Shown here one piece after another: positions 14,003 to 58,212 of a stretch of DNA of 64,000 bases (its first letter is position 1; the number at the start of each line of letters is the position of its first letter). Made by a program: the position numbers and the translations under genes. Source of the DNA: a virus; UHGV virus genome UHGV-0018639, one strand, 5' to 3'. The notes under the pieces are model-generated. The model was not told the DNA's origin, did no database searches, and saw only the letters and a list, made by a program, of their open reading frames with translations.

Positions 14003-14982
14003 TATGATTCTCCCAAATGTAAGACACGCTCTTTTATTTCTTGGGTACGGCCAAAATTCCAAAAATTAGAGCCAATATAGCCGCAAGTACGACGTGCAAC
14101 GTTCAAGGTAGAATGATCACGGTTGCCGCAATTTGGACAATACCACTCCATATTATCATCAATGAGAATTTCGCCATCGAAGCCACATTTCTGACAGTAG
14201 TCGCTCTTTGTATTAAGTTCAGCATACATTATGTTATCATAAATAAACCTATAAAGCTCTAAGACGGCAGGAATATTGTTTTGTAAATTAGGAACCTCTA
14301 CATAGCTTATTGCACCGCCCGGACTAAGTTTTTGAAACTCAGCCTCGAAAGCAAGTTTATCAAAAGCATTGATTTCTTCAAAAACAGGAACATGATAACT
14401 ATTTGTAATATAATTACGGTCATGCCCATCGAGTTTAATAAATATATCATTGCCAAATCGCTGTTTTAGGCAACGCGCAAACTTATATGTTGTACTTTCA
14501 ATAGGAGCACCATAGAGAGAATAATCAATTTTTTCAGCAGCTTTCCATTCAGCACACTTCTCATTTAAACGTGCCATTACTTCAAGAGCAAAAGGTTTCC
14601 CATCAGTCTGTGTATGGCTATGCCTTGTCATATATTTTACGCACTCATAAAGACCAGCATATCCAAGTGAAATTGTTGAATAGCCATTATGAAGCAATTT
14701 ATCAAGCCTCTCACCTTTTTCAAGACGAGCGAGTGCGCCATTTTGCCAAAGAATAGGGGCAACATCACTAAGGGTTCCCTCAAGACGCTTATGTCTAAGT
14801 TGAAGTGCTTTGTGGCATAATTCAGTACGCTCTTCAAATAGCTGCCAAAACTTATCAATATTACCGCCTGAACTAAAAGCTAAATCTGGTAAACTAATTG
14901 TAACAACACCTTGGTTAAAACGACCATAGTATTTTGGGTTATTATTTTCATCAACATAAGGAGTTAGGAAGCTCCTGCACAT
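14002..14982 (-). CDS. nrdD: anaerobic ribonucleoside-triphosphate reductase, exon 2 (C-terminal half with glycyl-radical domain)
   Basis: Glycyl radical motif RRTCGYIGS near the C-terminus. Zn ribbon CQKCG...CPNCG. The exon boundary lies upstream of the listed Met. Confidence 0.8.
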   Translation of the reverse strand: MCRSFLTPYVDENNNPKYYGRFNQGVVTISLPDLAFSSGGNIDKFWQLFEERTELCHKALQLRHKRLEGTLSDVAPILWQNGALARLEKGERLDKLLHNGYSTISLGYAGLYECVKYMTRHSHTQTDGKPFALEVMARLNEKCAEWKAAEKIDYSLYGAPIESTTYKFARCLKQRFGNDIFIKLDGHDRNYITNSYHVPVFEEINAFDKLAFEAEFQKLSPGGAISYVEVPNLQNNIPAVLELYRFIYDNIMYAELNTKSDYCQKCGFDGEILIDDNMEWYCPNCGNRDHSTLNVARRTCGYIGSNFWNFGRTQEIKERVLHLGES

Positions 14983-15742
14983 ATTATCCCATATCCCTAT
15001 GGGTACTGACTATATCTTCATTCCACTAAAAAGTGGAGTTGTCTTCCGCTTCGAGTGAGTGCCTATCTCTCACCCTACTCCCTTACATTCATCAGGGATA
15101 GTCGATACACTTCATTCATCATAATAAAAATTATAAGGAGTATTATTTGTCCGTTGCTGTAAAAGAAAGGTCCTGATACGATGTCTATCAATACCAGTTT
15201 TACGTTCGCATTCTCTCATTGACTTATAGTGAAAACGTTCTTTTGTCTCTTTATTTTCAGCAATTATCCAAATTCCACGCCCTTTATGCGGATTTATATA
15301 ATTGTTTTCCTGATAAGCCTTTCTAATATTTTCGCTGTGAGATACGGCCCGCAAATTAGAAAGTTCATTATGTGATTTATTTCCATCAATATGGTCTACA
15401 ACTGTACAATTATCAAGAAAAACTTCCGCCATAAGGCGATGAACGCGAGTTCGTATTCGATTGCCACCAAGACAAAGAACTACGTGTTGATACATATCAA
15501 TGCCAATATATGGACTAATTATTCTTCCCGTTTTAAAATTGATTATTTGAGCATCTTCATTTATACCAAATTGATTATTCAAACTTGGAATGGGCATAAA
15601 TTCTTTCATTATCTCACCTCCTTTTCATATTTATGATATATGATGAATTTTAGCACGGCCTCATCTGTTCTAGACCTAGCCGTTAGCCGCATTTGCGACA
15701 CCCGCGGGCGCGGTTCAAAAGATTTTATATGAGCTGCAGTTT
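14983..15742 (-). mobile_element. group I intron in nrdD carrying an HNH homing endonuclease ORF (boundaries approximate)
   Basis: About 760 nt separating the two nrdD halves. Non-coding flanks are structured; the flank motif ...gggatagtcgatac... recurs in the ORF-less insertion at 23919-24132. T4 nrdD (sunY) also has a group I intron. Confidence 0.6.
15112..15609 (-). CDS. HNH homing endonuclease (intron-encoded)
   Basis: HIDGNKSHNELSNLRAVSHSEN HNH motif. N-terminal IINFKTGRIISPY is AP2/NUMOD-like. Confidence 0.75.
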   Translation of the reverse strand: MKEFMPIPSLNNQFGINEDAQIINFKTGRIISPYIGIDMYQHVVLCLGGNRIRTRVHRLMAEVFLDNCTVVDHIDGNKSHNELSNLRAVSHSENIRKAYQENNYINPHKGRGIWIIAENKETKERFHYKSMRECERKTGIDRHRIRTFLLQQRTNNTPYNFYYDE

Positions 15743-16927
15743 TCACTTACCCATACAAGGATAACAACGACCCTTACCAGTTTTGTCTTTTTTTAATTCT
15801 AACATCATTTTTTCAGAAATAATATCAGGGACAAGACGCTTTGCTGTACATTTTGCTGCAAGTTCTGTTAAGTAAAAATACTTATCGCCCGGCTGTAAAT
15901 TATCAGGTTCAAGGACATAAAGTAACTTAGGAAATGCAGGCGTAATATAAACGCCTTTTTCATTCTTGAAACCTAAAATACGTTGTTTAATAAACTCCTC
16001 TATCAGCATTGCTAATTCATTCTTATATTCTTCTGTCTCGTTTAAATACATAAATACAGAAAGAAATGGTGCTTGACCATTTGTTGTTGTCATTGAATTG
16101 ACTTGATAGTTGAAAGTCTGAACAGCATCAACAACTTCTTTTTTTGTATCAAGTTGCGCATACTTATGCGCATTCTCATCGTCAAATCCCCAATCTTTAT
16201 ACTTCTTGAGATAAGCTTCATAAGAGCTTCTAACAAAAGGTGCAAGATGTGTAAGAGTAATAGTAGCACCACCATATGAAGAAGAAGCGACGCCAAGAAT
16301 TACTTGCGTTGCAATCGTAGAAGCTGTCAGAATTCTATGCGGCTTTTCAATTTTAACGTTATTAATTACAGTACCATTTTGAAGGACATCCTCTAAGTTA
16401 ATAAGATCGCAATTATGGAGGGTCTTCTGGCCGAAATAATCAATATCGTGGAAATGTATAATACCTTTCTCATGCGCGTCCACAATCTCAGGGGGAAGAA
16501 GAAATCGTTTAGAGATGTCTTCGCTAACAATACCGGCCATATAATCACGCTGTGTCGTTACAAGGTCGGCATTTTTATTTGAATTTTCAGCGTTCCAATA
16601 ATCACTTGTACCACTGATTAGTTCAAGTAAATCTTTGTCTGTTGTATTGCCTTCGCGCGCGAGTCTATGTTTATACCTGTATTCAACATAGCGCTCAGCC
16701 ACGTCTTTTCTTGAACTAGCCATAAGCCGCTCAACTACTAAGTCTTGAATTTCTTCAACGCTCAAATCTCTATTAAGCTTTTCTATTTGAGTAGCCACCA
16801 TTCGTGCCTTATTTTTGGCATAAGATGTTTCACGTCCATCTACTTCCAAAAAGGCTTTGAGAATGGCGACTCTAATTTTCTCTTTATCAAATGGAACCGT
16901 AGTTCCATCACGTTTTATGACGTACAA
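15743..16927 (-). CDS. nrdD: anaerobic ribonucleoside-triphosphate reductase, exon 1 (ATP-cone plus N-terminal catalytic half)
   Basis: ATP-cone VIKRDGTTVPFDKEKIRVAILKAF. Conserved NrdD core GIIHFHDIDYF. Last codons before the stop are probably intron-derived. Confidence 0.8.
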   Translation of the reverse strand: MYVIKRDGTTVPFDKEKIRVAILKAFLEVDGRETSYAKNKARMVATQIEKLNRDLSVEEIQDLVVERLMASSRKDVAERYVEYRYKHRLAREGNTTDKDLLELISGTSDYWNAENSNKNADLVTTQRDYMAGIVSEDISKRFLLPPEIVDAHEKGIIHFHDIDYFGQKTLHNCDLINLEDVLQNGTVINNVKIEKPHRILTASTIATQVILGVASSSYGGATITLTHLAPFVRSSYEAYLKKYKDWGFDDENAHKYAQLDTKKEVVDAVQTFNYQVNSMTTTNGQAPFLSVFMYLNETEEYKNELAMLIEEFIKQRILGFKNEKGVYITPAFPKLLYVLEPDNLQPGDKYFYLTELAAKCTAKRLVPDIISEKMMLELKKDKTGKGRCYPCMGK

Positions 16928-18267: not shown

Positions 18268-19728
18268 TTACTCACCCCTTACATGAGTTGTTATACGGCC
18301 ATATTCATCAATATCTGTTATTTCTTCAACCAGATGGTATGGGGTTCGGGAATATTTCTTCGCCAGAAATCCATCATCCTTTCTAATGCCACATACGATT
18401 ATCTTGTTGCCACGTGAGAAAGTGCTGCGACTGATAACGTGTTTCTTCCCATCAGGCCCTCTCTCCGAAATTTGCTTATCATAATTAGCAAATGCTTCGC
18501 CAAAAATTTTGACCTGAACAACGCCATCTTTTGTCAATAACGAAACAATTTTCTTTGCCTTATCCCTATCCAATACAGTTCCGCAAATACGATGTATTCT
18601 ATAAATCGGAACCGGCGCGCTATCACTATCCTTGCCGCGCGGTTTGAAGTAAGTCTCAACATCAGGCTGCTCTTTCAGTTTGAAGAAGTTTGAAAAGCCT
18701 TGCGCACGTTCATCAACATTTTGAAGTTCATGTTCGTGGAAATAACATGAAACGCTATCCATCTCCCACTTGCTTATTGAACCAAGACAATATTTATTCC
18801 AGATATCTCGCGTTAATCGCTCATTCACGGTATCTAGCAACTCATCATGATTTTCTTTTATCCACTTGCGGACATTATCCATATATTTCTTATAAATTTT
18901 GTCCCAAGCCGTGATGTTAATTTTGAAGCCACTTTCAGTTTCATTGCTTGCGCTCAAACAGTCAAGTGAAAAATTCTTATCAAGGAAATTCAATGCGATA
19001 TTATCTATGCCATAGAATGATGTGTCTAACTTCATTTTCTTGAGATACTTTGTGAAGTTATAAACACGACGCTCAAAATCAAGATTTTCGGGAATCAACC
19101 CAAAGTTTATCAACATTGCCATATTCTGAAGAGTGATACGTTTCTTTGTGTCGCTAATCAGGCTGACATATTCGCGCATTAAATCTACTCTATCACCAAA
19201 TGCATCAAAAGCTCCGCATTTTATGAGGTTTATCATTTGTGGCTTGTTGATTTTTACTTTGGAAAGAAAATCGGAGATTGAGTTATAGGGTCGATTTGCG
19301 ATTATGGATTTAACGATGTCTTCGCCGACTTTGACGATACCGCTCATACCATAACGAATTGTTGAATTTTCAACATCAGGAGAGAAAGTAAAAGTAGATT
19401 TGTTGATATCTGGAGGAGAAACCGAAATACCGGCCATTCGCATTTTACCGATTGCTGATGCAATTTTGCCATAGTTAGTCGTTTTGACTTTTTTCTTTTT
19501 CTTTTTTACATCAATTTTTTCTTCTTCGTCTTCATCTTCGTCGTCATCTTCGGTATCATCAACAAATTCTTCAATACAGTTGTTATAACTATATTCAATA
19601 ATATCTTCTGGCGTTTCGTCATCGTTCTCATCATTTGATTCATTGCCGCCGCTATCGCTAATCAAACACGCGCAATTCCAAAAAATTGTTGGAAAACGAT
19701 ATGCAAGATTCATTTCCTGCAAAGCCAC
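18268..19728 (-). CDS. DNA polymerase III alpha (DnaE-like), C-terminal portion (fingers/HhH/OB)
   Basis: GISVSPPDINKSTFTF matches the DnaE (V/I)LPPDIN.S..F motif. Long acidic linker. C-terminal OB-like region. Confidence 0.6.
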   Translation of the reverse strand: MALQEMNLAYRFPTIFWNCACLISDSGGNESNDENDDETPEDIIEYSYNNCIEEFVDDTEDDDEDEDEEEKIDVKKKKKKVKTTNYGKIASAIGKMRMAGISVSPPDINKSTFTFSPDVENSTIRYGMSGIVKVGEDIVKSIIANRPYNSISDFLSKVKINKPQMINLIKCGAFDAFGDRVDLMREYVSLISDTKKRITLQNMAMLINFGLIPENLDFERRVYNFTKYLKKMKLDTSFYGIDNIALNFLDKNFSLDCLSASNETESGFKINITAWDKIYKKYMDNVRKWIKENHDELLDTVNERLTRDIWNKYCLGSISKWEMDSVSCYFHEHELQNVDERAQGFSNFFKLKEQPDVETYFKPRGKDSDSAPVPIYRIHRICGTVLDRDKAKKIVSLLTKDGVVQVKIFGEAFANYDKQISERGPDGKKHVISRSTFSRGNKIIVCGIRKDDGFLAKKYSRTPYHLVEEITDIDEYGRITTHVRGE

Positions 19729-20855
19729 AAGCGAGTAGGAAAGAGTATGTGCTCGACAACTTACCGCACATAGTTTCTTATGCCAGATTTACTCTGTTGC
19801 GGTCTGGACTATACCATCAATTTCATTGTTTCCAATGAAAAAGTCCTTATTATAGTCTCTGAACGTTTTTCTTATCTCAATATATTTTCTATTCATACCA
19901 AAAGGCTTATTATAAACTAGAGCGATTAGTTTTAGGATATTGAACTGATTAGCGGTTTCAACTCTATATAAGCTATCTTCAGTTTTTCTTATATGTAAAT
20001 CTTCCATAAAGAAATTTTCTACTAAGATTTTTTCAATCCATTTGATAAATTCTTCAGATGCTGATACTATATAAAATTGAGCACCGCCATAAGAAGTTTT
20101 ACTGACACACCCATCACCGTCTATTATACCACGAATAATGTAAGGCAAATATCGCTTTTCTTGCTCATACAATTGCGGCGCCGGTATAATATATGTTTTA
20201 TTCTTTATTATACCATAACGGGCAGCCTCAGCTTGAAGACCCGGCCTATTTATCAATACCCTATATCGAGTTTGCTTTCCAGCTTGAGGATAGGCCTTAT
20301 AAGTTATTCCAATTCCTTTAGCTATAAAAGCAATAACATCTTCGTCCACCATATCCAACCCTAAGCCATCTCGATCGCTCAATAGATATCCATCCGTAAG
20401 CAGTAGCCCGATTAGATATGCATCGAACGGACTTTTGATTTCAGATAACGAATAGGTATATCCTCGACGATTATCTTGCGCTTGCCGTATAATTTCTTGA
20501 TATTCATCTGGATAATACTTTTTTACCTTGTCGGTTATAGACTTCTTTGTTTTATAACCATATCGACCCATTAGCTCTGAAACCGATGCCCCATTCTTAT
20601 ATTCTTCAACTAATTTTAGTTCATCTTCTTTTGATATTTTCTGATAACCCATAGTATATCCCTCCTAAGAATAAGTAGCCCTATTCAAATAGAAATACAC
20701 TAAAATAAGAAACTTCGCTGCGGATTATCCAATTCTAAATGATTTTACTATACCCTCTCTCTTTCTGAGAGGCCGCGATATTATTGCTAATATCGTTTAG
20801 TTATTTAGACTCTAAGGAAGTCCCCGCAATTTCAAGGATTTATACTCGTCTTGTA
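19729..20855 (-). mobile_element. intervening sequence in DnaE-like gene carrying a LAGLIDADG endonuclease (probable group I intron; boundaries approximate)
   Basis: Polymerase N- and C-terminal parts are contiguous ORFs on the same strand separated by ~1.1 kb. About 200 nt of structured non-coding flank lies at 20653-20855. Confidence 0.45.
19789..20652 (-). CDS. LAGLIDADG homing endonuclease (double-motif)
   Basis: Two LAGLIDADG motifs: LIGLLLTDGYL and IIRGIIDGDGCV. N-terminal HTH-like region. Confidence 0.8.
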   Translation of the reverse strand: MGYQKISKEDELKLVEEYKNGASVSELMGRYGYKTKKSITDKVKKYYPDEYQEIIRQAQDNRRGYTYSLSEIKSPFDAYLIGLLLTDGYLLSDRDGLGLDMVDEDVIAFIAKGIGITYKAYPQAGKQTRYRVLINRPGLQAEAARYGIIKNKTYIIPAPQLYEQEKRYLPYIIRGIIDGDGCVSKTSYGGAQFYIVSASEEFIKWIEKILVENFFMEDLHIRKTEDSLYRVETANQFNILKLIALVYNKPFGMNRKYIEIRKTFRDYNKDFFIGNNEIDGIVQTATE

Positions 20856-23360
20856 TTAGTCAAACGAGTACCCGCGCTGAACTCTGAACAAAACGTCCCA
20901 TACATAATGGGCAAAAGTCATATCACAACCTTTTTCTTTTGCATTTTCAAAATAGGCTTTTTCACATTCATCAAAGAGTTTGCCTTGTTTTTTTGCAATT
21001 GCCTTTCGACATTTATCTGCAAAAGTCAGATTATTCCCTCCGAGTCTTTCTTCCTGCAGAAGCTGCATCATTCCTTCTTGACTCTCACATATGCCACTCG
21101 TTATCGCATTATGTCCAATTAACCATTTTATATCTTCATTTTTTAATCCATATTGAATCATTTCGTCTCGCCATTCATTGATATTCAAACGATATCTTGC
21201 CCACATATCAAGTGGCTGCTCAGCTCCTTTTTCAGGAGCCATTAGACGAATTACTGAATTCAAAACAGCTAATTCACTAACGTTTTTAGGATGAGTTAGC
21301 GCTATGCCAGAAATGCCGCTCGGTTGTTCCATTTGAAACAAACTGGATATCTTATGATTCCAAACCATTTCCCACATTTCTGGTGCAGTTCGTTCAAGAT
21401 TATATATGCCAATTACACTTTCATAAGTTTCACGTAATGTTGGCTTTCGCTCTATATAACCATAATCACATAACAAATCTAGCTCATTGTGTATTTTATC
21501 AAGAGCTTCAATTGACAACATATCAATTTTGATCAGCGATGCGTCCTCCGCATCATGGAGTTCAAAAGCCGTAATGACCGTGCCATCAGGCGCGCGTGTT
21601 AGCGCTGTCGATTCCGTAAAAGGCTCGTCAACGAAGATCACTCCACCGGCGTGGACGCCAATGCCACAAATTAACCCCTCAATTTTTGAAGCAACTTCCC
21701 AAACATCACTGTAGGTTTTCATTGCTTCAACAAATTGCTTTACTGGCTTAAAACCTTTATCTTCATCACCCTCTATACATTGGGTAAGTGAGCGAAGTTG
21801 CCCGCGATCAGCTGGAATCAGAGATGCCAAATAGGATGCTACATCAACATCAATTCCCAAGCCACGGCAGGCCGTTAGAATTGCTGATTTAGATTTTTCT
21901 GTTTTGAATGTAATAACATTCGCAACTCTGTCTTCCCCATAAAACTCACGGAATTTCTGTAAAACTTGTGCACGACGTCCGCCTTCAATATCAGTATCAA
22001 CGTCCAATACCGACGCACGTTCGGGATTAAGAAAACGCCAATGAAATACTTGAGTTTCTTCTTGAATTGGATTTATCTGTGTTATATCTAATGCATATAA
22101 CAAAATAAATCCTGCACCTGAACCACGCCCCGGCCCAACAAGAGAACCAGCTTCCCAACATAAATCAATATTTTTCTGCAGATTCAGAAAATAAGTCGAC
22201 CAATGCGTGTGATTTGTTATCGACGAACGCCATGTATCATCAAGACAAATATTTATCTCATCATACGCTCGTTTGTTCTGCAAACCCGGCTTCCGTTGGA
22301 TGCCGTCAATAATCGCCCAAACCAGTTTTCTATCACCCCAATAATCAGAGTTATAGAAAGTTTCTAAATAAGGAATTTCATGTTTGAGAATATCATATGC
22401 TGCCTCATCTTCAGGAAATGTTTTCCAATAAAGTTCTGGAATTTTTAAGGGGCGCATTAGTGAAAAATCTTCACACATTTCACCTATCTTGAGAATATTA
22501 TAATATGCAACTTGAAGTTGTTCTTCGGTGAAATAATCGAAATACTCTTCTATTTCTTTCGTATTCATAAGATACGTAGTAGCATAGAAATCATCTACTT
22601 CTCGTTCACCATTCTGTGCATTGAGATATGCCTTATGAATCGCGCGATCTTCTTTTTTGAGATAATGGCTATCAGTTGTTATAACATAAGAAATGTCGTA
22701 TTTAGCTGATAATTCAAGCAACTTTTTATTTACATAAATTTGTTCTTTGTTATGACTTGGTTGCATTTCAAAAAAGAAATTACCGTGCCCAAAAAGTTTA
22801 TCCAAAGATAAAATCCAATTTTCAATTTTGCTATTGAGCGAGCTATCATTTCGTGCTTTGAGAAGCTGAGTAGGAAGACAGCCACCGAGGCAAGCTGTCA
22901 TTCCCACAATGTGTCCCGGATTAGCCCCTACGATTTCAAACAAATCACTATAATAAGTTGGCATACGACGCATACCACGCGCCATATAACTACGTAATCC
23001 TGCACGAGTAGATAATTCTCTAATTTGTTTATGCCCAATCGCGTCTTTTGCTAACAAAATAAAGTGATAATATTTATCTTGTCCTGTAATAAAATTCGAT
23101 GCATTTAACCCATTTCGACAAAGATAAATTTCATTTCCTTGAATAAATTTGAAATCAGGGTATTTTTCTTTTACTTTTTTATAATACTTTTCTGCCTTAA
23201 TCGCGCCAGATATTGACTCATGGTCTGTAAGAGCGACGACTTTATGACCCAACTCGATGGCGCGATCAATTAGGTCTGAGACTTTTATTATACAGTCTCG
23301 AAGCCTTTCATTAGAATAATCCGAGTGGTTATGTAATGACCCCGGATACGGAATATTCAA
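20856..23360 (-). CDS. DNA polymerase III alpha (DnaE-like), N-terminal portion (PHP and polymerase core)
   Basis: PHP domain start NIPYPGSLHNHSDYSNERL...ALTDHESISG. 834 aa. Consensus promoter upstream at 23393-23421. Confidence 0.8.
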   Translation of the reverse strand: MNIPYPGSLHNHSDYSNERLRDCIIKVSDLIDRAIELGHKVVALTDHESISGAIKAEKYYKKVKEKYPDFKFIQGNEIYLCRNGLNASNFITGQDKYYHFILLAKDAIGHKQIRELSTRAGLRSYMARGMRRMPTYYSDLFEIVGANPGHIVGMTACLGGCLPTQLLKARNDSSLNSKIENWILSLDKLFGHGNFFFEMQPSHNKEQIYVNKKLLELSAKYDISYVITTDSHYLKKEDRAIHKAYLNAQNGEREVDDFYATTYLMNTKEIEEYFDYFTEEQLQVAYYNILKIGEMCEDFSLMRPLKIPELYWKTFPEDEAAYDILKHEIPYLETFYNSDYWGDRKLVWAIIDGIQRKPGLQNKRAYDEINICLDDTWRSSITNHTHWSTYFLNLQKNIDLCWEAGSLVGPGRGSGAGFILLYALDITQINPIQEETQVFHWRFLNPERASVLDVDTDIEGGRRAQVLQKFREFYGEDRVANVITFKTEKSKSAILTACRGLGIDVDVASYLASLIPADRGQLRSLTQCIEGDEDKGFKPVKQFVEAMKTYSDVWEVASKIEGLICGIGVHAGGVIFVDEPFTESTALTRAPDGTVITAFELHDAEDASLIKIDMLSIEALDKIHNELDLLCDYGYIERKPTLRETYESVIGIYNLERTAPEMWEMVWNHKISSLFQMEQPSGISGIALTHPKNVSELAVLNSVIRLMAPEKGAEQPLDMWARYRLNINEWRDEMIQYGLKNEDIKWLIGHNAITSGICESQEGMMQLLQEERLGGNNLTFADKCRKAIAKKQGKLFDECEKAYFENAKEKGCDMTFAHYVWDVLFRVQRGYSFD

Positions 23361-23423: not shown

Positions 23424-23918
23424 TCAAAAACTCCACTCCGCGTTTTCAACTTCAACGTCTACGATTTGCAATTGTGGGGTATAATTTCCAAGCCATTCGT
23501 TGACATTCGGCTTGCCCACAATCGTTAAACACATTTCAGGCCATTTGTGAAGTTTTTCAATCAAATCTTTCGCACGGAACTTTATGTAAGTAATTCCATT
23601 CTTTTCAATTCGTATCGTGTCTTGACTCTTACCAATTATCTTTACATCCGCAGGTCTTATGTAAAGGTTTGTTATCGCCATAAGACTTTGAGGATTGTTC
23701 TGACCCCAAACTCTCTCATATCGCGCGAGGTCGAATATGATGTTGGATATATCATTGTCGCTTGCTTTGCGGACAAAATCGACGTCGTAATTATTATCGC
23801 CAAAATCGTAAGCCACGAGTTGAGTGTTAGATAAGGCAAGAAGTTCATTATAGCTATTAGCTGGAATGGCAAACCCAGCTGCATTAGCGTGCGTGTAATC
23901 CCTTGTTTCCAAGGGCAC
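23424..23918 (-). CDS. RecJ-like DHH nuclease, exon 2 (DHHA1 C-terminal part)
   Basis: THANAAGF matches the DHHA1 GGGHxxAAG motif. The listed start is GTG inside the probable intron 3' end. Confidence 0.5.
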   Translation of the reverse strand: MPLETRDYTHANAAGFAIPANSYNELLALSNTQLVAYDFGDNNYDVDFVRKASDNDISNIIFDLARYERVWGQNNPQSLMAITNLYIRPADVKIIGKSQDTIRIEKNGITYIKFRAKDLIEKLHKWPEMCLTIVGKPNVNEWLGNYTPQLQIVDVEVENAEWSF

Positions 23919-24132
23919 TGACTATTTCTTACATATGTAAAACATATGAATACCCATTTCGGGCGGCGTACCAATAGCCGTCCTACTTCTCCGATTCGAG
24001 AATAGTCGATACAGGTTCCTTGTCGTATGACAAGTCTTCCCACGAGATTAGCATATCTTTCGACTTAGCTTTCCTCGTTAGCCGCGAATGCGACCCCACT
24101 GGTAAGTGGAAAAGGTATAACGGGCCAATTCC
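23919..24132 (-). mobile_element. ORF-less group I intron-like insertion in RecJ-like gene
   Basis: 214-nt non-coding insert. It shares sequence blocks with the nrdD intron flanks: gcactgactatttctt, cgattcgagaatagtcgatac, cgttagccgcgaatgcgacc. Confidence 0.55.
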
Positions 24133-25383
24133 TCAACCCTGTACGTAATCAAATAAACTAGTATCTAACAAATAATCCTTGAACGACGTAAGCGCGCTCT
24201 GTGAAAGACCTCTAATACTTCCCTTTATCATTCCATCGGGGCCTTCGCGGCCTATCATTGTAGGCTTATGATACCGCGCGCTAAGCTGTGTTGCAATCAA
24301 ACCATTCAACTCAGGCGGGAAGTTATCATCGTCATCAAGTTTTACAAATAAAATTTTGTTTTCAAGTAAATCATACTTATGTATCTTATACTCAAGTTGC
24401 TCAGTTGCTTTTTCTTTTGCTTTATCTTGGTGCGACTTCGCGTTCGTACATTCGCGTGCACTTTCGATTGCAAGCTTTTCAAGAGTCCCCTTCGCACCAC
24501 GCTTGCCGCTAGGCACAAGTTCCTCACCAGCAACAACTGCACGATAGAGACGTTTTTTCTCATCTTGTGAACCTACACGTATCATTGCGTTGATAAGCGG
24601 CGTTATGTAAAATGCGACAGTTGTTGGATTGACCTCGCCGCCCATTGAGTAGGACTGCTTTTCAACAAGAGTTTTGAGGAAAAAGTTTCGTATGTTGGCA
24701 CAACCTTGCTGGACAATGAACTGATTTTCGTATGATAGCATACTTACCATATCACTTATAATACCCAACGCCGCTAAGTCAATATATTCCCAAGCCCAAT
24801 TATGGCCAAACGCATCATCAAGCGCACGGCAGAACTGCCACACGACACCAGCGCCGCACAGGTCTTTGTTCTGATAAGCGGGGCTTGTCTGATTGTTTAT
24901 TAGAATCATATTAGGCGGAATTTCGCTTGTGGGTTCTAATTCGTGGTGGTCGATGCAGAGCACGGGACAGTCTAACTGTTTGATATACTCACCATCGTTA
25001 GTTCCCGCGTCCGGGACTATGACACCGCTCCAACTATGTTCAAGCAACTTATCCATCACATCACTACAACCGTGCTGTTTGCCGCTGTGTATTATCTGTA
25101 TAATATGCTTTACGGGATTGAGTCGCTTTATGTATTGATAAATAATGCCGCTTGACGTCAAGCCGTCCGCATCACAATCACAAATTAGCCCCAGTGGATT
25201 TTCATCATTCAAGTTTTGTCTGATAAAATCAATACCTTCATCTATATTATCCAGCGCGCGGTAACTCTGTAAGCACGACTCATCAGGATTCAAGAACAGA
25301 TCAACGTCTTCAATTCCTCTCAATCGTAAAATTTGTTCTCCATAGTTTTCATATATTCCATCGTTTGTCAATTTATATTTCAC
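24133..25383 (-). CDS. RecJ-like DHH-family phosphoesterase/exonuclease, exon 1
   Basis: DHH motifs LICDCDADGLTS and VLCIDHHE. Confidence 0.7.
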   Translation of the reverse strand: MKYKLTNDGIYENYGEQILRLRGIEDVDLFLNPDESCLQSYRALDNIDEGIDFIRQNLNDENPLGLICDCDADGLTSSGIIYQYIKRLNPVKHIIQIIHSGKQHGCSDVMDKLLEHSWSGVIVPDAGTNDGEYIKQLDCPVLCIDHHELEPTSEIPPNMILINNQTSPAYQNKDLCGAGVVWQFCRALDDAFGHNWAWEYIDLAALGIISDMVSMLSYENQFIVQQGCANIRNFFLKTLVEKQSYSMGGEVNPTTVAFYITPLINAMIRVGSQDEKKRLYRAVVAGEELVPSGKRGAKGTLEKLAIESARECTNAKSHQDKAKEKATEQLEYKIHKYDLLENKILFVKLDDDDNFPPELNGLIATQLSARYHKPTMIGREGPDGMIKGSIRGLSQSALTSFKDYLLDTSLFDYVQG

Positions 25384-54896: not shown

Positions 54897-55616
54897 AAAG
54901 TCAAAAGGAGGACGATGCTAGTGCCACCTACACGTGGTATCCTCTGTTTTCGCTAAGAGCGCTGGCATATATTCAATTAAATAATACTAACTCAGTGAAG
55001 ACGGAATTCGATGTTCCGGCTGAGAAATTCTAGCTAGCACAGCAGAAACGAAACAAGGATACTTGTGGATACTGGACTGGGAGGCCATCGAGAGATGAGC
55101 CGAAGTAGAGCGGTTGCTCAAGTGGGAAGAAGAGCAGGAATTGTGCTGAGTGAATCGCAAGTAAACGCAGCCGTGGAGTGGCGGGCGCAATAGATAGCTT
55201 GGTGAATAGCCAAGCCGAATCCAAGTTAGGTTTTAGTTGGTGACTGTGACAATCCTTGGAAAAGCCAATAAGCTCGTTCCGTTGAGACGACAGGGAATGT
55301 GAAATCTGTCTTTGACACTCTACAGTATCCGAGTAGCGGAACACAACGGGGACTTTAGATTAAAAAGATGTTGACAGTAATAGAAATTACTACTTTCTGA
55401 ACATCCCGTGAAAGGTAGAGGTAATCAATCCTCTGGCGGATTAGGCGACATTAGACACTTGGGGTTATCCAAGACTAACAAGTCAATGTTGTTGCTGGGG
55501 TAAGAAGTGTATGGGCGACGGCCTGTATGCTCAGACTTATCTCCCGCGTGGCAGAATATGCTTGAAGGTTTATCGAGGTAGGGCGAAGGCCCAGTAATAT
55601 TTAGTTGGATTTATAT
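54897..55616 (+). ncRNA. candidate large structured noncoding RNA (about 720 nt) co-transcribed with tRNA-Met
   Basis: No credible ORF. GC content is locally elevated with many local hairpins. Strong consensus promoter upstream. tRNA and terminator immediately downstream. Context matches that reported for GOLLD/ROOL-class large phage ncRNAs. Confidence 0.35.
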
Positions 55617-57665: not shown

Positions 57666-57986
57666 ATGGATAAATATACTGGCTATTACGAATGGCGCCC
57701 ATCAGAGCAAGGGCTTGAGGACTTTTATTCTGGCTTTTTTACTCCTGCGGGGATGGGTCTGGTAGAAAACCAGTATTTGATTATCTATGACGCTGATGGC
57801 AAAGTTATAGATAAATATTTTTGTAAGAACAACGAGTTTGAGAAAGTTCATTATATGACACTCCAAAGCGATTACTGCGGCGTTATCAAACCGCGCAATG
57901 TGTATCAGGAACTAGCAATTCACGCACTGTTAGATAGGCGTGTTCCTGTAAAGGCGCTGGGTGGTGTTTTTGGTTCGGGTAAATAA
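57666..57986 (+). CDS. phoH: PhoH-like ATPase, exon 1 (ends in Walker A GSGK)
   Basis: IKPRNVYQELAIHALLDRRVPVKALGGVFGSGK parallels PhoH I.P.t.gQ..yi.a......vfgiGpAGtGKT. Stop immediately after the K. Confidence 0.6.
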   Translation: MDKYTGYYEWRPSEQGLEDFYSGFFTPAGMGLVENQYLIIYDADGKVIDKYFCKNNEFEKVHYMTLQSDYCGVIKPRNVYQELAIHALLDRRVPVKALGGVFGSGK

Positions 57987-58212
57987 CTTGCCCCTTCTTA
58001 GGGCGACCTAAGAATGAAAATCGCGTGAATTGCTGGAAACCTAAGCCGCGAGGTATGGTAATCAGCAGCCAAGCCGTTTAACAACGGAAGGTTCAACGAC
58101 TATCCCGACAGGGAGTAGGGAGCAATCCCGAAGTGCGCGACAACTTTCAAAGTTGATGATATAGTCTAATCCCCTTTTGAAATATCGGGAAACCGAGGGT
58201 ATAAATGAAGGA
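57987..58212 (+). mobile_element. ORF-less group I intron in phoH (boundaries approximate)
   Basis: About 225-nt non-coding insert exactly at the P-loop. Contains ggtatggtaatcagcagccaagcc, resembling the Tetrahymena intron segment GGUAUGGUAAUAAGCUGACGG...CAGCCAAGUCC (P5/P6-J6/7). Also contains gatgatatagtct. Confidence 0.55.

Follow-up and report, generated by a model that had tools for sequence, protein, structure and literature searches.

What is the stretch of DNA that interrupts the RecJ-like gene of the virus sequence UHGV-0018639, and how is it related to other introns? The original prediction had described it as a minimal group I intron without a reading frame of its own, akin to an intron in the nrdD gene of the same genome. 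[quoted passage not shown]

The window, i.e. the whole 64-kb stretch of DNA analysed here, resembles a portion of a large phage genome. Its minus strand carries genes for a DnaB helicase, a primase, the RecJ-like exonuclease, a DNA polymerase III alpha-type polymerase and NrdD/NrdG; a tRNA array, a ROOL RNA and a PhoH-like gene are found on the plus strand. Among cultured phages, the nearest relatives of the RecJ-like protein are those of Geobacillus virus E3 (37%) and SPbeta (yorK, 35%).

The joined gene and the limits of the insert

The first reading frame of the RecJ-like gene as called (24133-25383, minus strand, 416 aa) matches the Pfam DHH domain and ends with the codons GAT TAC GTA CAG GGT, i.e. 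..DYVQG, followed by TGA, which agrees with the exon end that had been predicted. The second frame as called (23424-23918, minus strand, 164 aa) matches Pfam RecJ_OB and contains ..HANAAGF... When the two are joined without the insert, a protein of 571 aa results that has the DHH, DHHA1 and RecJ OB domains in one chain (Pfam DHH 9.2e-12, RecJ_OB 3.1e-10). The DHHA1 match spans residues 345-439 with an E value of 0.0027, which is below the Pfam gathering score, and is seen solely with the joined protein. RecJ structures in the PDB are also found with the joined protein (8y30, 1.4e-18; 2zxo, 2.5e-17), and the 8y30 alignment runs through the join without a gap, with vqGHanAAG opposite fgGHhmAAG.

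A homologue search with the joined protein gave 4168 sequences; of the best 120, the majority are unbroken chains of 570-576 aa. Among these best 120 the position of the join reads, for example, ..DYVQG|HSQAAG.., ..EYVMG|HDNAAG.. or ..LAQG|HDQAFG... In an alignment of 11 RecJ-like proteins G416 and H417 are invariant. An intron-less allele, L005, whose protein is 92% identical, reads ..TAC GTG CAA GGG CAT TCG.., and at the equivalent position the window has ..TAC GTA CAG GGT-[244 nt]-CAC GCT... Since the joins of both the homologues and L005 read G|H, the insert comprises positions 23892-24135; T24136 is the last base of exon 1, and exon 2 starts at C23891 with CAC (His), the first of the codons CAC GCT AAT GCA GCT GGG that encode HANAAG of the DHHA1 motif. 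Removal of the insert restores exactly the reading frame of the uninterrupted homologues (DYVQG|HANAAG), and the predicted splice point lies in the DHHA1 GH..AAG motif, exactly between the codons of the invariant residues Gly416 and His417.

The DHH-family gene is thus split on the minus strand at the motif that had been named, while the limits have to be moved from 23919-24132 (214 nt) to 23892-24135 (244 nt). The earlier boundaries missed 3 nt at the 5' end (UGA) and 27 nt at the 3' end, i.e. P9 and the tail ..AUUACACG, the terminal G of which is at 23892. The UGA is in frame with exon 1 and closes its ORF. Of the predicted exon 2 sequence THANAAGF, the part HANAAGF is retained and the leading T is encoded by the intron tail. 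A 3' boundary at 23919 and three in-frame candidates ending in G, with which exon 2 would begin with DYT.., ETR.. or PLE.., were ruled out by the homologue junction; an exon 2 start at GTG 23918 was ruled out by the uninterrupted homologues and by L005. As predicted, the insert has no ORF able to encode a homing endonuclease: the mechanically listed ORFs that overlap it are 38-123 aa long and all of them cross exon-intron boundaries.

In every intron-bearing metagenome contig the gene callers list two ORFs, and the locus could be read in this way, as adjacent genes for a DHH protein and an OB-fold protein that are separated by a structured intergenic RNA. This is practically out of the question, as one continuous protein crosses the join in 71 of the 80 homologous loci, the split is inside an invariant catalytic motif and the insert has a group I core; the comparisons with the homologues and with the intron-less allele refute it. 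In other words, public metagenome records list as two ORFs (416 and 164 aa) a gene of which the true product is predicted to be a 571-aa enzyme.

Positions of the RecJ-like gene, the elements of its intron and the other split genes in the window
Feature	Position	Strand	Description and basis
Exon 1 of the RecJ-like gene	24136-25383	-	416 codons, DHH domain; ORF list, Pfam, homologue junction
Group I intron	23892-24135	-	244 nt; Rfam RF00028, family HMMs, covariation
Exon 2 of the RecJ-like gene	23424-23891	-	155 codons and stop; contains RecJ_OB domain
P1	24122-24139	-	Exon GGGU and intron UGA with UUGGCCC (internal guide); read from sequence
P3 5' strand	24113-24118	-	AUACCU, directly 3' of the guide; pairs with GGGUAU 23950-23955; covariation
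P2 hairpin	24096-24109	-	CCAC-UUACCA-GUGG; alignment
P2.1 hairpin	24081-24094	-	GUCGC-AUUC-GCGGC; immediately 5' of J3/4 (UA)
P4 enclosing P5 and P5a	24042-24078	-	P4 ACGAGG/UCUCGU, P5a with GAAA loop; P and Q core elements
P6 and P6a	24013-24041	-	P6 GGG/CCU, P6a CUUGUC-AUAC-GACAAG
P7 5' strand (R element)	24003-24007	-	GACUA; invariant in 11/11 aligned introns; Rfam alignment
P7.1 and P7.2	23961-24002	-	P7.1 UUCUC/GAGAA; P7.2 GGACGGC/GCCGCCC, loop UAUUGGUAC
P3 3' strand	23950-23955	-	GGGUAU, directly before P8
P8, J8/7, P7 3' strand and P9	23900-23948	-	P8 CAUAUGU/ACAUAUG, J8/7 UAAGAAA, P9 CCCUUG-GAAA-CAAGGG
P7 3' strand (S element)	23920-23924	-	UAGUC; with GACUA forms the guanosine-binding helix
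nrdD intron	14980-15748	-	769 nt; joins ..CYPCMG|CRSFL..
HNH_3 endonuclease ORF in the nrdD intron	15112-15609	-	Pfam
Polymerase exon 1 ORF	20856-23360	-	PHP, pol3_alpha NTPase and finger domains
Polymerase exon 2 ORF	18268-19728	-	HHH_6
LAGLIDADG_3 ORF	19789-20652	-	In the polymerase insert of about 1.13 kb

Fold, helix order and family of the intron

The elements of the proposed fold are listed in the table. At the 5' splice site U24136 forms the wobble pair with G24125; the base before the intron is the T of GGT in all intron-bearing alleles and the final G of GGG in the intron-less L005. The loop of P1 is GGAA in the window and GAAA in sister alleles. The loop of P2 (UACCA, 24100-24104) pairs with UGGUA in the loop of P7.2 (23969-23973), and P7.1 and P7.2 are located between P7 and the 3' strand of P3, as in the phage introns of subgroup IA2. 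P10 is about 2 bp long (CA/UG) in the window and 5 bp in the same-site relatives L115b and L206. With a P10 this weak, the choice of the 3' splice site would depend on the terminal G and on nearby contacts.

The fold was scored on 11 aligned ORF-less members of the intron family (alignment A2), with P1, P3, P2, P2.1, the L2-L7.2 kissing interaction, P4, P5, P5a, P6, P6a, P7, P7.1, P7.2, P8 and P9 included. In the proposed structure 87.3% of the cells are paired, as compared to 37-45% when the 3' partners are slid by 1-3 columns, and 44 pairs are changed on both sides; none of 500 shuffles matched the observed values. In these 11 sequences 89% of the P3 cells are paired, and four of the six P3 pairs have changes on both sides. 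When 40 family members were compared, P4 was paired in 99.6%, P7.1 in 100% and P7.2 in 92%, with many compensatory changes in P7.1 and P7.2. An A-U/G-C pair of P4 covaries in a ratio of 23:17, and the central pair of the L2-L7.2 interaction is C-G in 10 and U-A in 29 of the 40. In P2.1 the G-C and U·G pairs at the base do not vary, and the pairs above them covary (GUCAU/AUGGC, GUAUC/GAUGC, GUCAC/GUGGC). The minimum free energy of the 244-nt RNA has a z-score of -3.0, and folding of the single sequence recovers P2.1, P4, P5, P5a, P6, P6a, P8 and P9. The introns of four close metagenomic alleles (L001, L003, L051 and L250) are 93-95% identical and keep the fold via compensatory changes, e.g. CCAC/GUGG to CCGC/GCGG in P2 and GGACGGC/GCCGCCC to GGGUGGC/GCCAUCC in P7.2. 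All helices of the conserved group I core, i.e. of the P4-P6 and P3-P7-P8 domains including the P3/P7 pseudoknot, could be located in the intron.

A covariance-model search had been proposed as a check. In a local scan the Rfam model RF00028 (Intron_gpI) matched the insert at 35.3 bits (E value 2.8e-7) with the P, Q, R and S elements aligned; P4-P6, the R element (..GACUA) and the S element (..AAAUAGUC) were well matched. At the Rfam gathering threshold of 50 bits there was no match at the recJ insert, i.e. by this operational rule, which serves annotation and is no criterion of biology, it is not counted as a member. The 12 loci that were scanned contain 10 other ORF-less copies of the family, none of which reached the threshold, as well as three other introns that passed it. 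The P3 that the Rfam model imposes (GCGGC with GCCGC inside P7.2) was tried and rejected: it is paired in 72.7% of the cells, 90 of 500 shuffles are as good, and one pair is changed on both sides. RF00028 thus forces an unsupported P3 onto the P2/P3 region, hence the score of the recJ intron is below the threshold. The assignment of the insert to the group I introns is upheld by the RF00028 match, the core elements and the covariation-backed fold taken together.

The order of the helices is P1-P3(5')-P2-P2.1-J3/4-P4, which differs from the canonical IA2 order P1-P2-P3(5')-J3/4-P4; we therefore class the intron as IA-like rather than as canonical IA2. Variants of the P3 helix in the family include GAGUCC/GGGCUC, AAUUUCUU/AAGAAAUU and GGCACU/GGUGCC, and P3 of the nrdD intron in the window is UCUUUUG/CGGAAGA. 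P2.1 occupies the position that the 5' strand of P3 usually has, and it could stack on the shortened P3. The literature searched held nothing decisive on the P3/P2 order or on the L2-L7.2 pairing. It is a tentative suggestion, one that we would not favour at present, that the intron stands for a large subclass of phage group I introns with a distinct structure, which the current models fail to detect. If the P3-first arrangement is indeed undescribed, many phage genes that are listed as 'split' or 'truncated' in the databases are really intron-bearing and have been overlooked by Rfam-based annotation. The helix order and the systematic failure of the Rfam model are the sole parts of this analysis that may go beyond the known phage group I introns.

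Two pattern scans of IMG/VR showed the family to be widespread in phages. A pattern with fixed spacing from P7 to P7.2 gave two loci only, and a version with a variable gap succeeded. Some of the members are ORF-less and about 215-345 nt long, and many are 0.8-2.4 kb long with an ORF in P6a. When the recJ region was compared to cultured phages by blastn, only 80-nt core matches were found, in Lactococcus AM1-like phages and in Bacillus phage S4-2; matches of the family consensus were confined to the Enterococcus phages EF1, EF5 and VRE9_3. In Lactococcus phage AM1 (L248, KY554768.1, about 53.3-54.3 kb) the core match is located between two CDSs that are both annotated as 'DNA gyrase'. This match, which adjoins a 'hypothetical protein', is an unannotated ORF-bearing family intron in a gyrase gene. 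Another locus (L008:6884-7135, minus strand) has an ORF-less family intron of about 220 nt that is inserted after the fifth codon of its host gene (ATG AAA TTT GGC GT|). The family is common in phage metagenomes, and with a covariance model made for it many introns that are now hidden would be recovered.

If the intron works as its fold suggests, the transcript would fold and an external guanosine would attack after U24136; the freed 3'-OH of exon 1 would then attack after G23892 and join GGU|CAC. The spliced RNA would be translated to the full 571-aa RecJ-like enzyme. In unspliced RNA translation would stop at the first codon of the intron, UGA, and give a truncated protein, so the translation of the 571-aa enzyme would depend on splicing.

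It can be asked whether the intron has decayed to a form that no longer splices, with the RecJ-like gene being a pseudogene or giving two separate polypeptides. The lack of an endonuclease gene, the weak P10, the Rfam score under the threshold and the apparent terminal A of the same-site relative L206 would agree with this. Yet in the window the helices of the core are all intact, and so are the guanosine-binding P7, the terminal G and the U·G wobble; five alleles that are 93-95% identical retain the fold by compensatory changes. Both exons are still open and conserved, and no plausible codon at which exon 2 could be started independently lies outside the intron. Moreover, protein clusters that contain exon 1 only have 101 and 9 member sequences, i.e. 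the split form is common in nature. We rate a decayed intron as very unlikely.

There is a somewhat better case, which we still find unlikely, for an intron that splices in vivo with the help of a host or phage protein cofactor, or of an endonuclease or maturase acting in trans, perhaps as a checkpoint for RecJ expression. The in-frame UGA, by which unspliced RNA gives a truncated protein, would suit such a role, and according to PMC11878797 four of eight spliced introns of Bastillevirinae phages were spliced in infected cells only. The sequence of the recJ intron, however, gives no sign of a missing core element, and the fold looks self-contained from its small size and peripheral contacts (the L2-L7.2 kissing interaction and the GNRA loops on P1, P5a and P9).

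Relation to the nrdD intron and homing at the recJ site

The sequence blocks that the recJ and nrdD introns were predicted to share are real, although shorter than the 12-20 nt that had been given: the exact runs are GCGGCTAACG (10 nt), TGTATCGACTAT (12 nt) and ATAGTCAGT (9 nt). In a 19-nt block, GTCGCnnnnGCGGCTAACG, the two introns differ at three of the four loop positions. This block corresponds to P2.1, J3/4 and P4, and two other shared motifs correspond to J6/7 and P7 (GTATCGACTAT) and to J8/7 and the 3' strand of P7 (AAGAnATAGTCAGT). Each of the shared motifs is confined to the recJ and nrdD loci within the 64-kb window (0.02-0.6 matches are expected by chance), i.e. they are not promoter or terminator motifs common to the intergenic regions. 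A global pairwise alignment with the ORF removed from the nrdD intron gave 168 matches (z = 7.5 over shuffles). The nrdD intron, with P1 AUGGGU/GCUCAU and P10 UGCAG/CUGCA, also has P3 before P2. The predicted kinship is therefore borne out, as the shared blocks are elements of the ribozyme core.

It was further suggested that related introns are spreading within this genome, i.e. that the recJ and nrdD introns are recent copies of one element that moves between genes. The motifs that are limited to the two loci and the unusual P3/P2/P2.1 arrangement common to both would fit this. The core of the nrdD intron, however, is about 70% identical to that of the recJ intron and ranks 31st of 41 comparisons; about 30 members from other phages are closer (70-78%), and L001, L003 and L051 reach 94-96%. 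Family HMMs (nhmmer, two modules) scored the recJ intron at 88.6 and 100 bits and the nrdD intron at 8 and 25.9 bits. When 50 core sequences (nrdD and 49 family copies) were placed in a neighbour-joining tree, the nrdD intron formed the longest branch; in 78% of the bootstrap replicates a recJ-site intron from a different phage was the closest sequence to the recJ intron beyond its own subclade. Moreover, the nrdD intron carries an HNH gene and the recJ-site relatives carry GIY-YIG genes. With closer kin in other phages and nrdD the most distant member compared, recent spreading within the genome is hardly credible. The likeness of the two introns appears to be at the level of the family, and the sequences give no indication of recent copying within the genome.

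Other split genes and RNAs were seen in the window. The DNA polymerase III alpha-type gene (18268-23360, minus strand) is also split; the intron-less relative L005 encodes a single 1318-aa polymerase. The 5' part of the polymerase insert contains P/Q-like sequences (AAAUUGCGGGGA and AAUCCGCAGC) and a weak match to P4-P6 of RF00028 (15.2 bits, E value 0.54), and the insert is probably a fourth group I intron of the window. At 57981-58207 (plus strand) a PhoH-like ATPase gene is interrupted within its Walker A motif (GSG|K) by an insert that ends with ..UAUAAAUG; once the two parts are joined, the protein is recognised by Pfam PhoH (8e-28). A full-length ROOL RNA (54967-55612, plus strand; RF03087, 268.9 bits) is found inside the phage tRNA array, where Rfam detects 11 tRNAs between 50349 and 56919.

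The distribution of introns at the recJ site was investigated in 80 RecJ-homologue loci of IMG/VR, 71 of which are uninterrupted. The remaining nine are interrupted exactly between G and H: two by an ORF-less intron of about 242 nt, both relatives of the window, and seven by an intron of the same family of about 955 nt that encodes a 242-aa GIY-YIG ORF. This ORF begins in the loop of P6a and extends into P7 and P7.1. The seven loci come from a clade whose RecJ-like protein is 58-60% identical, and the window intron is about 66-68% identical to such endonuclease-bearing recJ-site introns of a more distant phage clade. Pattern scans added same-site copies in L115 (ORF-less), L100 and L206 (GIY-YIG by Pfam) and L167 (decayed GIY-YIG); the same-site GIY-YIG proteins are 230-242 aa long and all are encoded in P6a. 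The forms with and without an endonuclease gene have the same P7.1 sequence, CUCCACUUCGGAG, and the same base of P6a (CUUG..CAAG). The G|H site of the DHHA1 motif is thus a recurrent homing target, occupied in 9/80 RecJ-homologue loci. No homing endonuclease is encoded within the recJ intron of the window, i.e. it lacks the feature by which a mobile intron is defined. As its same-site relatives bear GIY-YIG genes in P6a, the window copy looks like the endonuclease-less form of a homing element. Monophyly of the recJ-site introns had a bootstrap value of 21.5%, and L167 was placed elsewhere in the tree.

The exon sequences around the junction were also compared. Between the window and L005 the identity is 56-60% in about 90 nt around the junction versus 86% overall. 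The near-junction identity is lowered between intron-bearing alleles too (63-68% for L001). The dip, together with the absence in L005 of the U at position -1 (GGG, not GGT), fits a co-transfer of flanking exon sequence, for which the evidence is weak because the divergent stretch is in part variable among intron-bearing alleles as well.

We also note that L005 has a free-standing GIY-YIG gene (L005:4777-5493) between recJ and the polymerase gene. The gap between these two genes is 63 nt in the window and about 63 nt in the intron-bearing relatives, and the window has no free-standing endonuclease gene adjoining recJ. The recJ-site copy of L206 (minus strand, L206m2804) apparently ends in A, not G, before CAT (..AAUACA|CAUGCA), which may reflect a defective copy or a sequencing error. 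L115, an IMGVR_UViG contig, has at least three family introns at about 3.2-10.6 kb, one of them at the recJ G|H site, as well as one canonical intron that passes Rfam; its replication module is intron-rich like that of the window.

According to the proposed scheme, the recJ intron would belong to a site-specific homing lineage, in which the window copy most likely lost its GIY-YIG gene (or never gained one). It would now persist through vertical inheritance, through recombination of phages during co-infection or with the help of an endonuclease in trans. The GIY-YIG-bearing, ORF-less and intron-less recJ alleles offer a natural series for the cycle of endonuclease gene gain and loss.

Comparison with known introns

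The introns of the td, nrdB and nrdD (sunY) genes of phage T4 and those of Staphylococcus phage Twort are phage group I introns of subgroup IA2. Like the recJ intron, they have P7.1/P7.2 between P7 and the 3' strand of P3 and R/S elements of the type GACUA/AUAGUC, and their ORFs, when present, are in peripheral loops, as in the recJ intron family. Unlike in these introns, the 5' strand of P3 in the recJ intron directly follows the guide and precedes two hairpins, i.e. it is not located between P2 and J3/4. Foley et al. in 2000 are said to have found a lysin-gene intron of Streptococcus thermophilus phages that is present at one site either in a full ORF-bearing form or as shorter ORF-less derivatives. 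The recJ intron differs from it in the gene, the intron lineage and the endonuclease type, and its ORF-less form keeps just a 16-nt P6a hairpin.

Group I introns in phages have been reviewed (PMC3984707). This review and a further paper (PMC3984707; PMC11878797) list as intron-bearing DNA-metabolism genes td, nrdB and nrdD of T4, the polymerase genes of SPO1 and Bastille, genes of Twort, and bnrdE and bnrdF of SPbeta; an intron in a phage recJ-like gene was not reported in the literature searched. In cyanophage S-PM2 an ORF-less psbA intron is accompanied by the free-standing endonuclease F-CphI, which was termed 'collaborative homing' (PMC3984707). The window differs from S-PM2 in having no free-standing endonuclease gene next to recJ, where L005 has its GIY-YIG gene.

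Similar in its described features is the nrdF intron of the Bacillus cereus group, which belongs to subgroup IA and has P6a, P7.1 and P7.2 and a gene for the GIY-YIG endonuclease I-BthII (PMC2248736). The I-BthII gene begins in the loop of P6a and overlaps P7, and natural variants of the B. thuringiensis nrdF intron exist in which most of the gene is deleted (PMC2248736). This intron is bacterial and located in a different gene. The recJ intron leaves the understanding of the group I mechanism unchanged, and it adds a new example to the well-known phage group I introns and their ORF-less derivatives.
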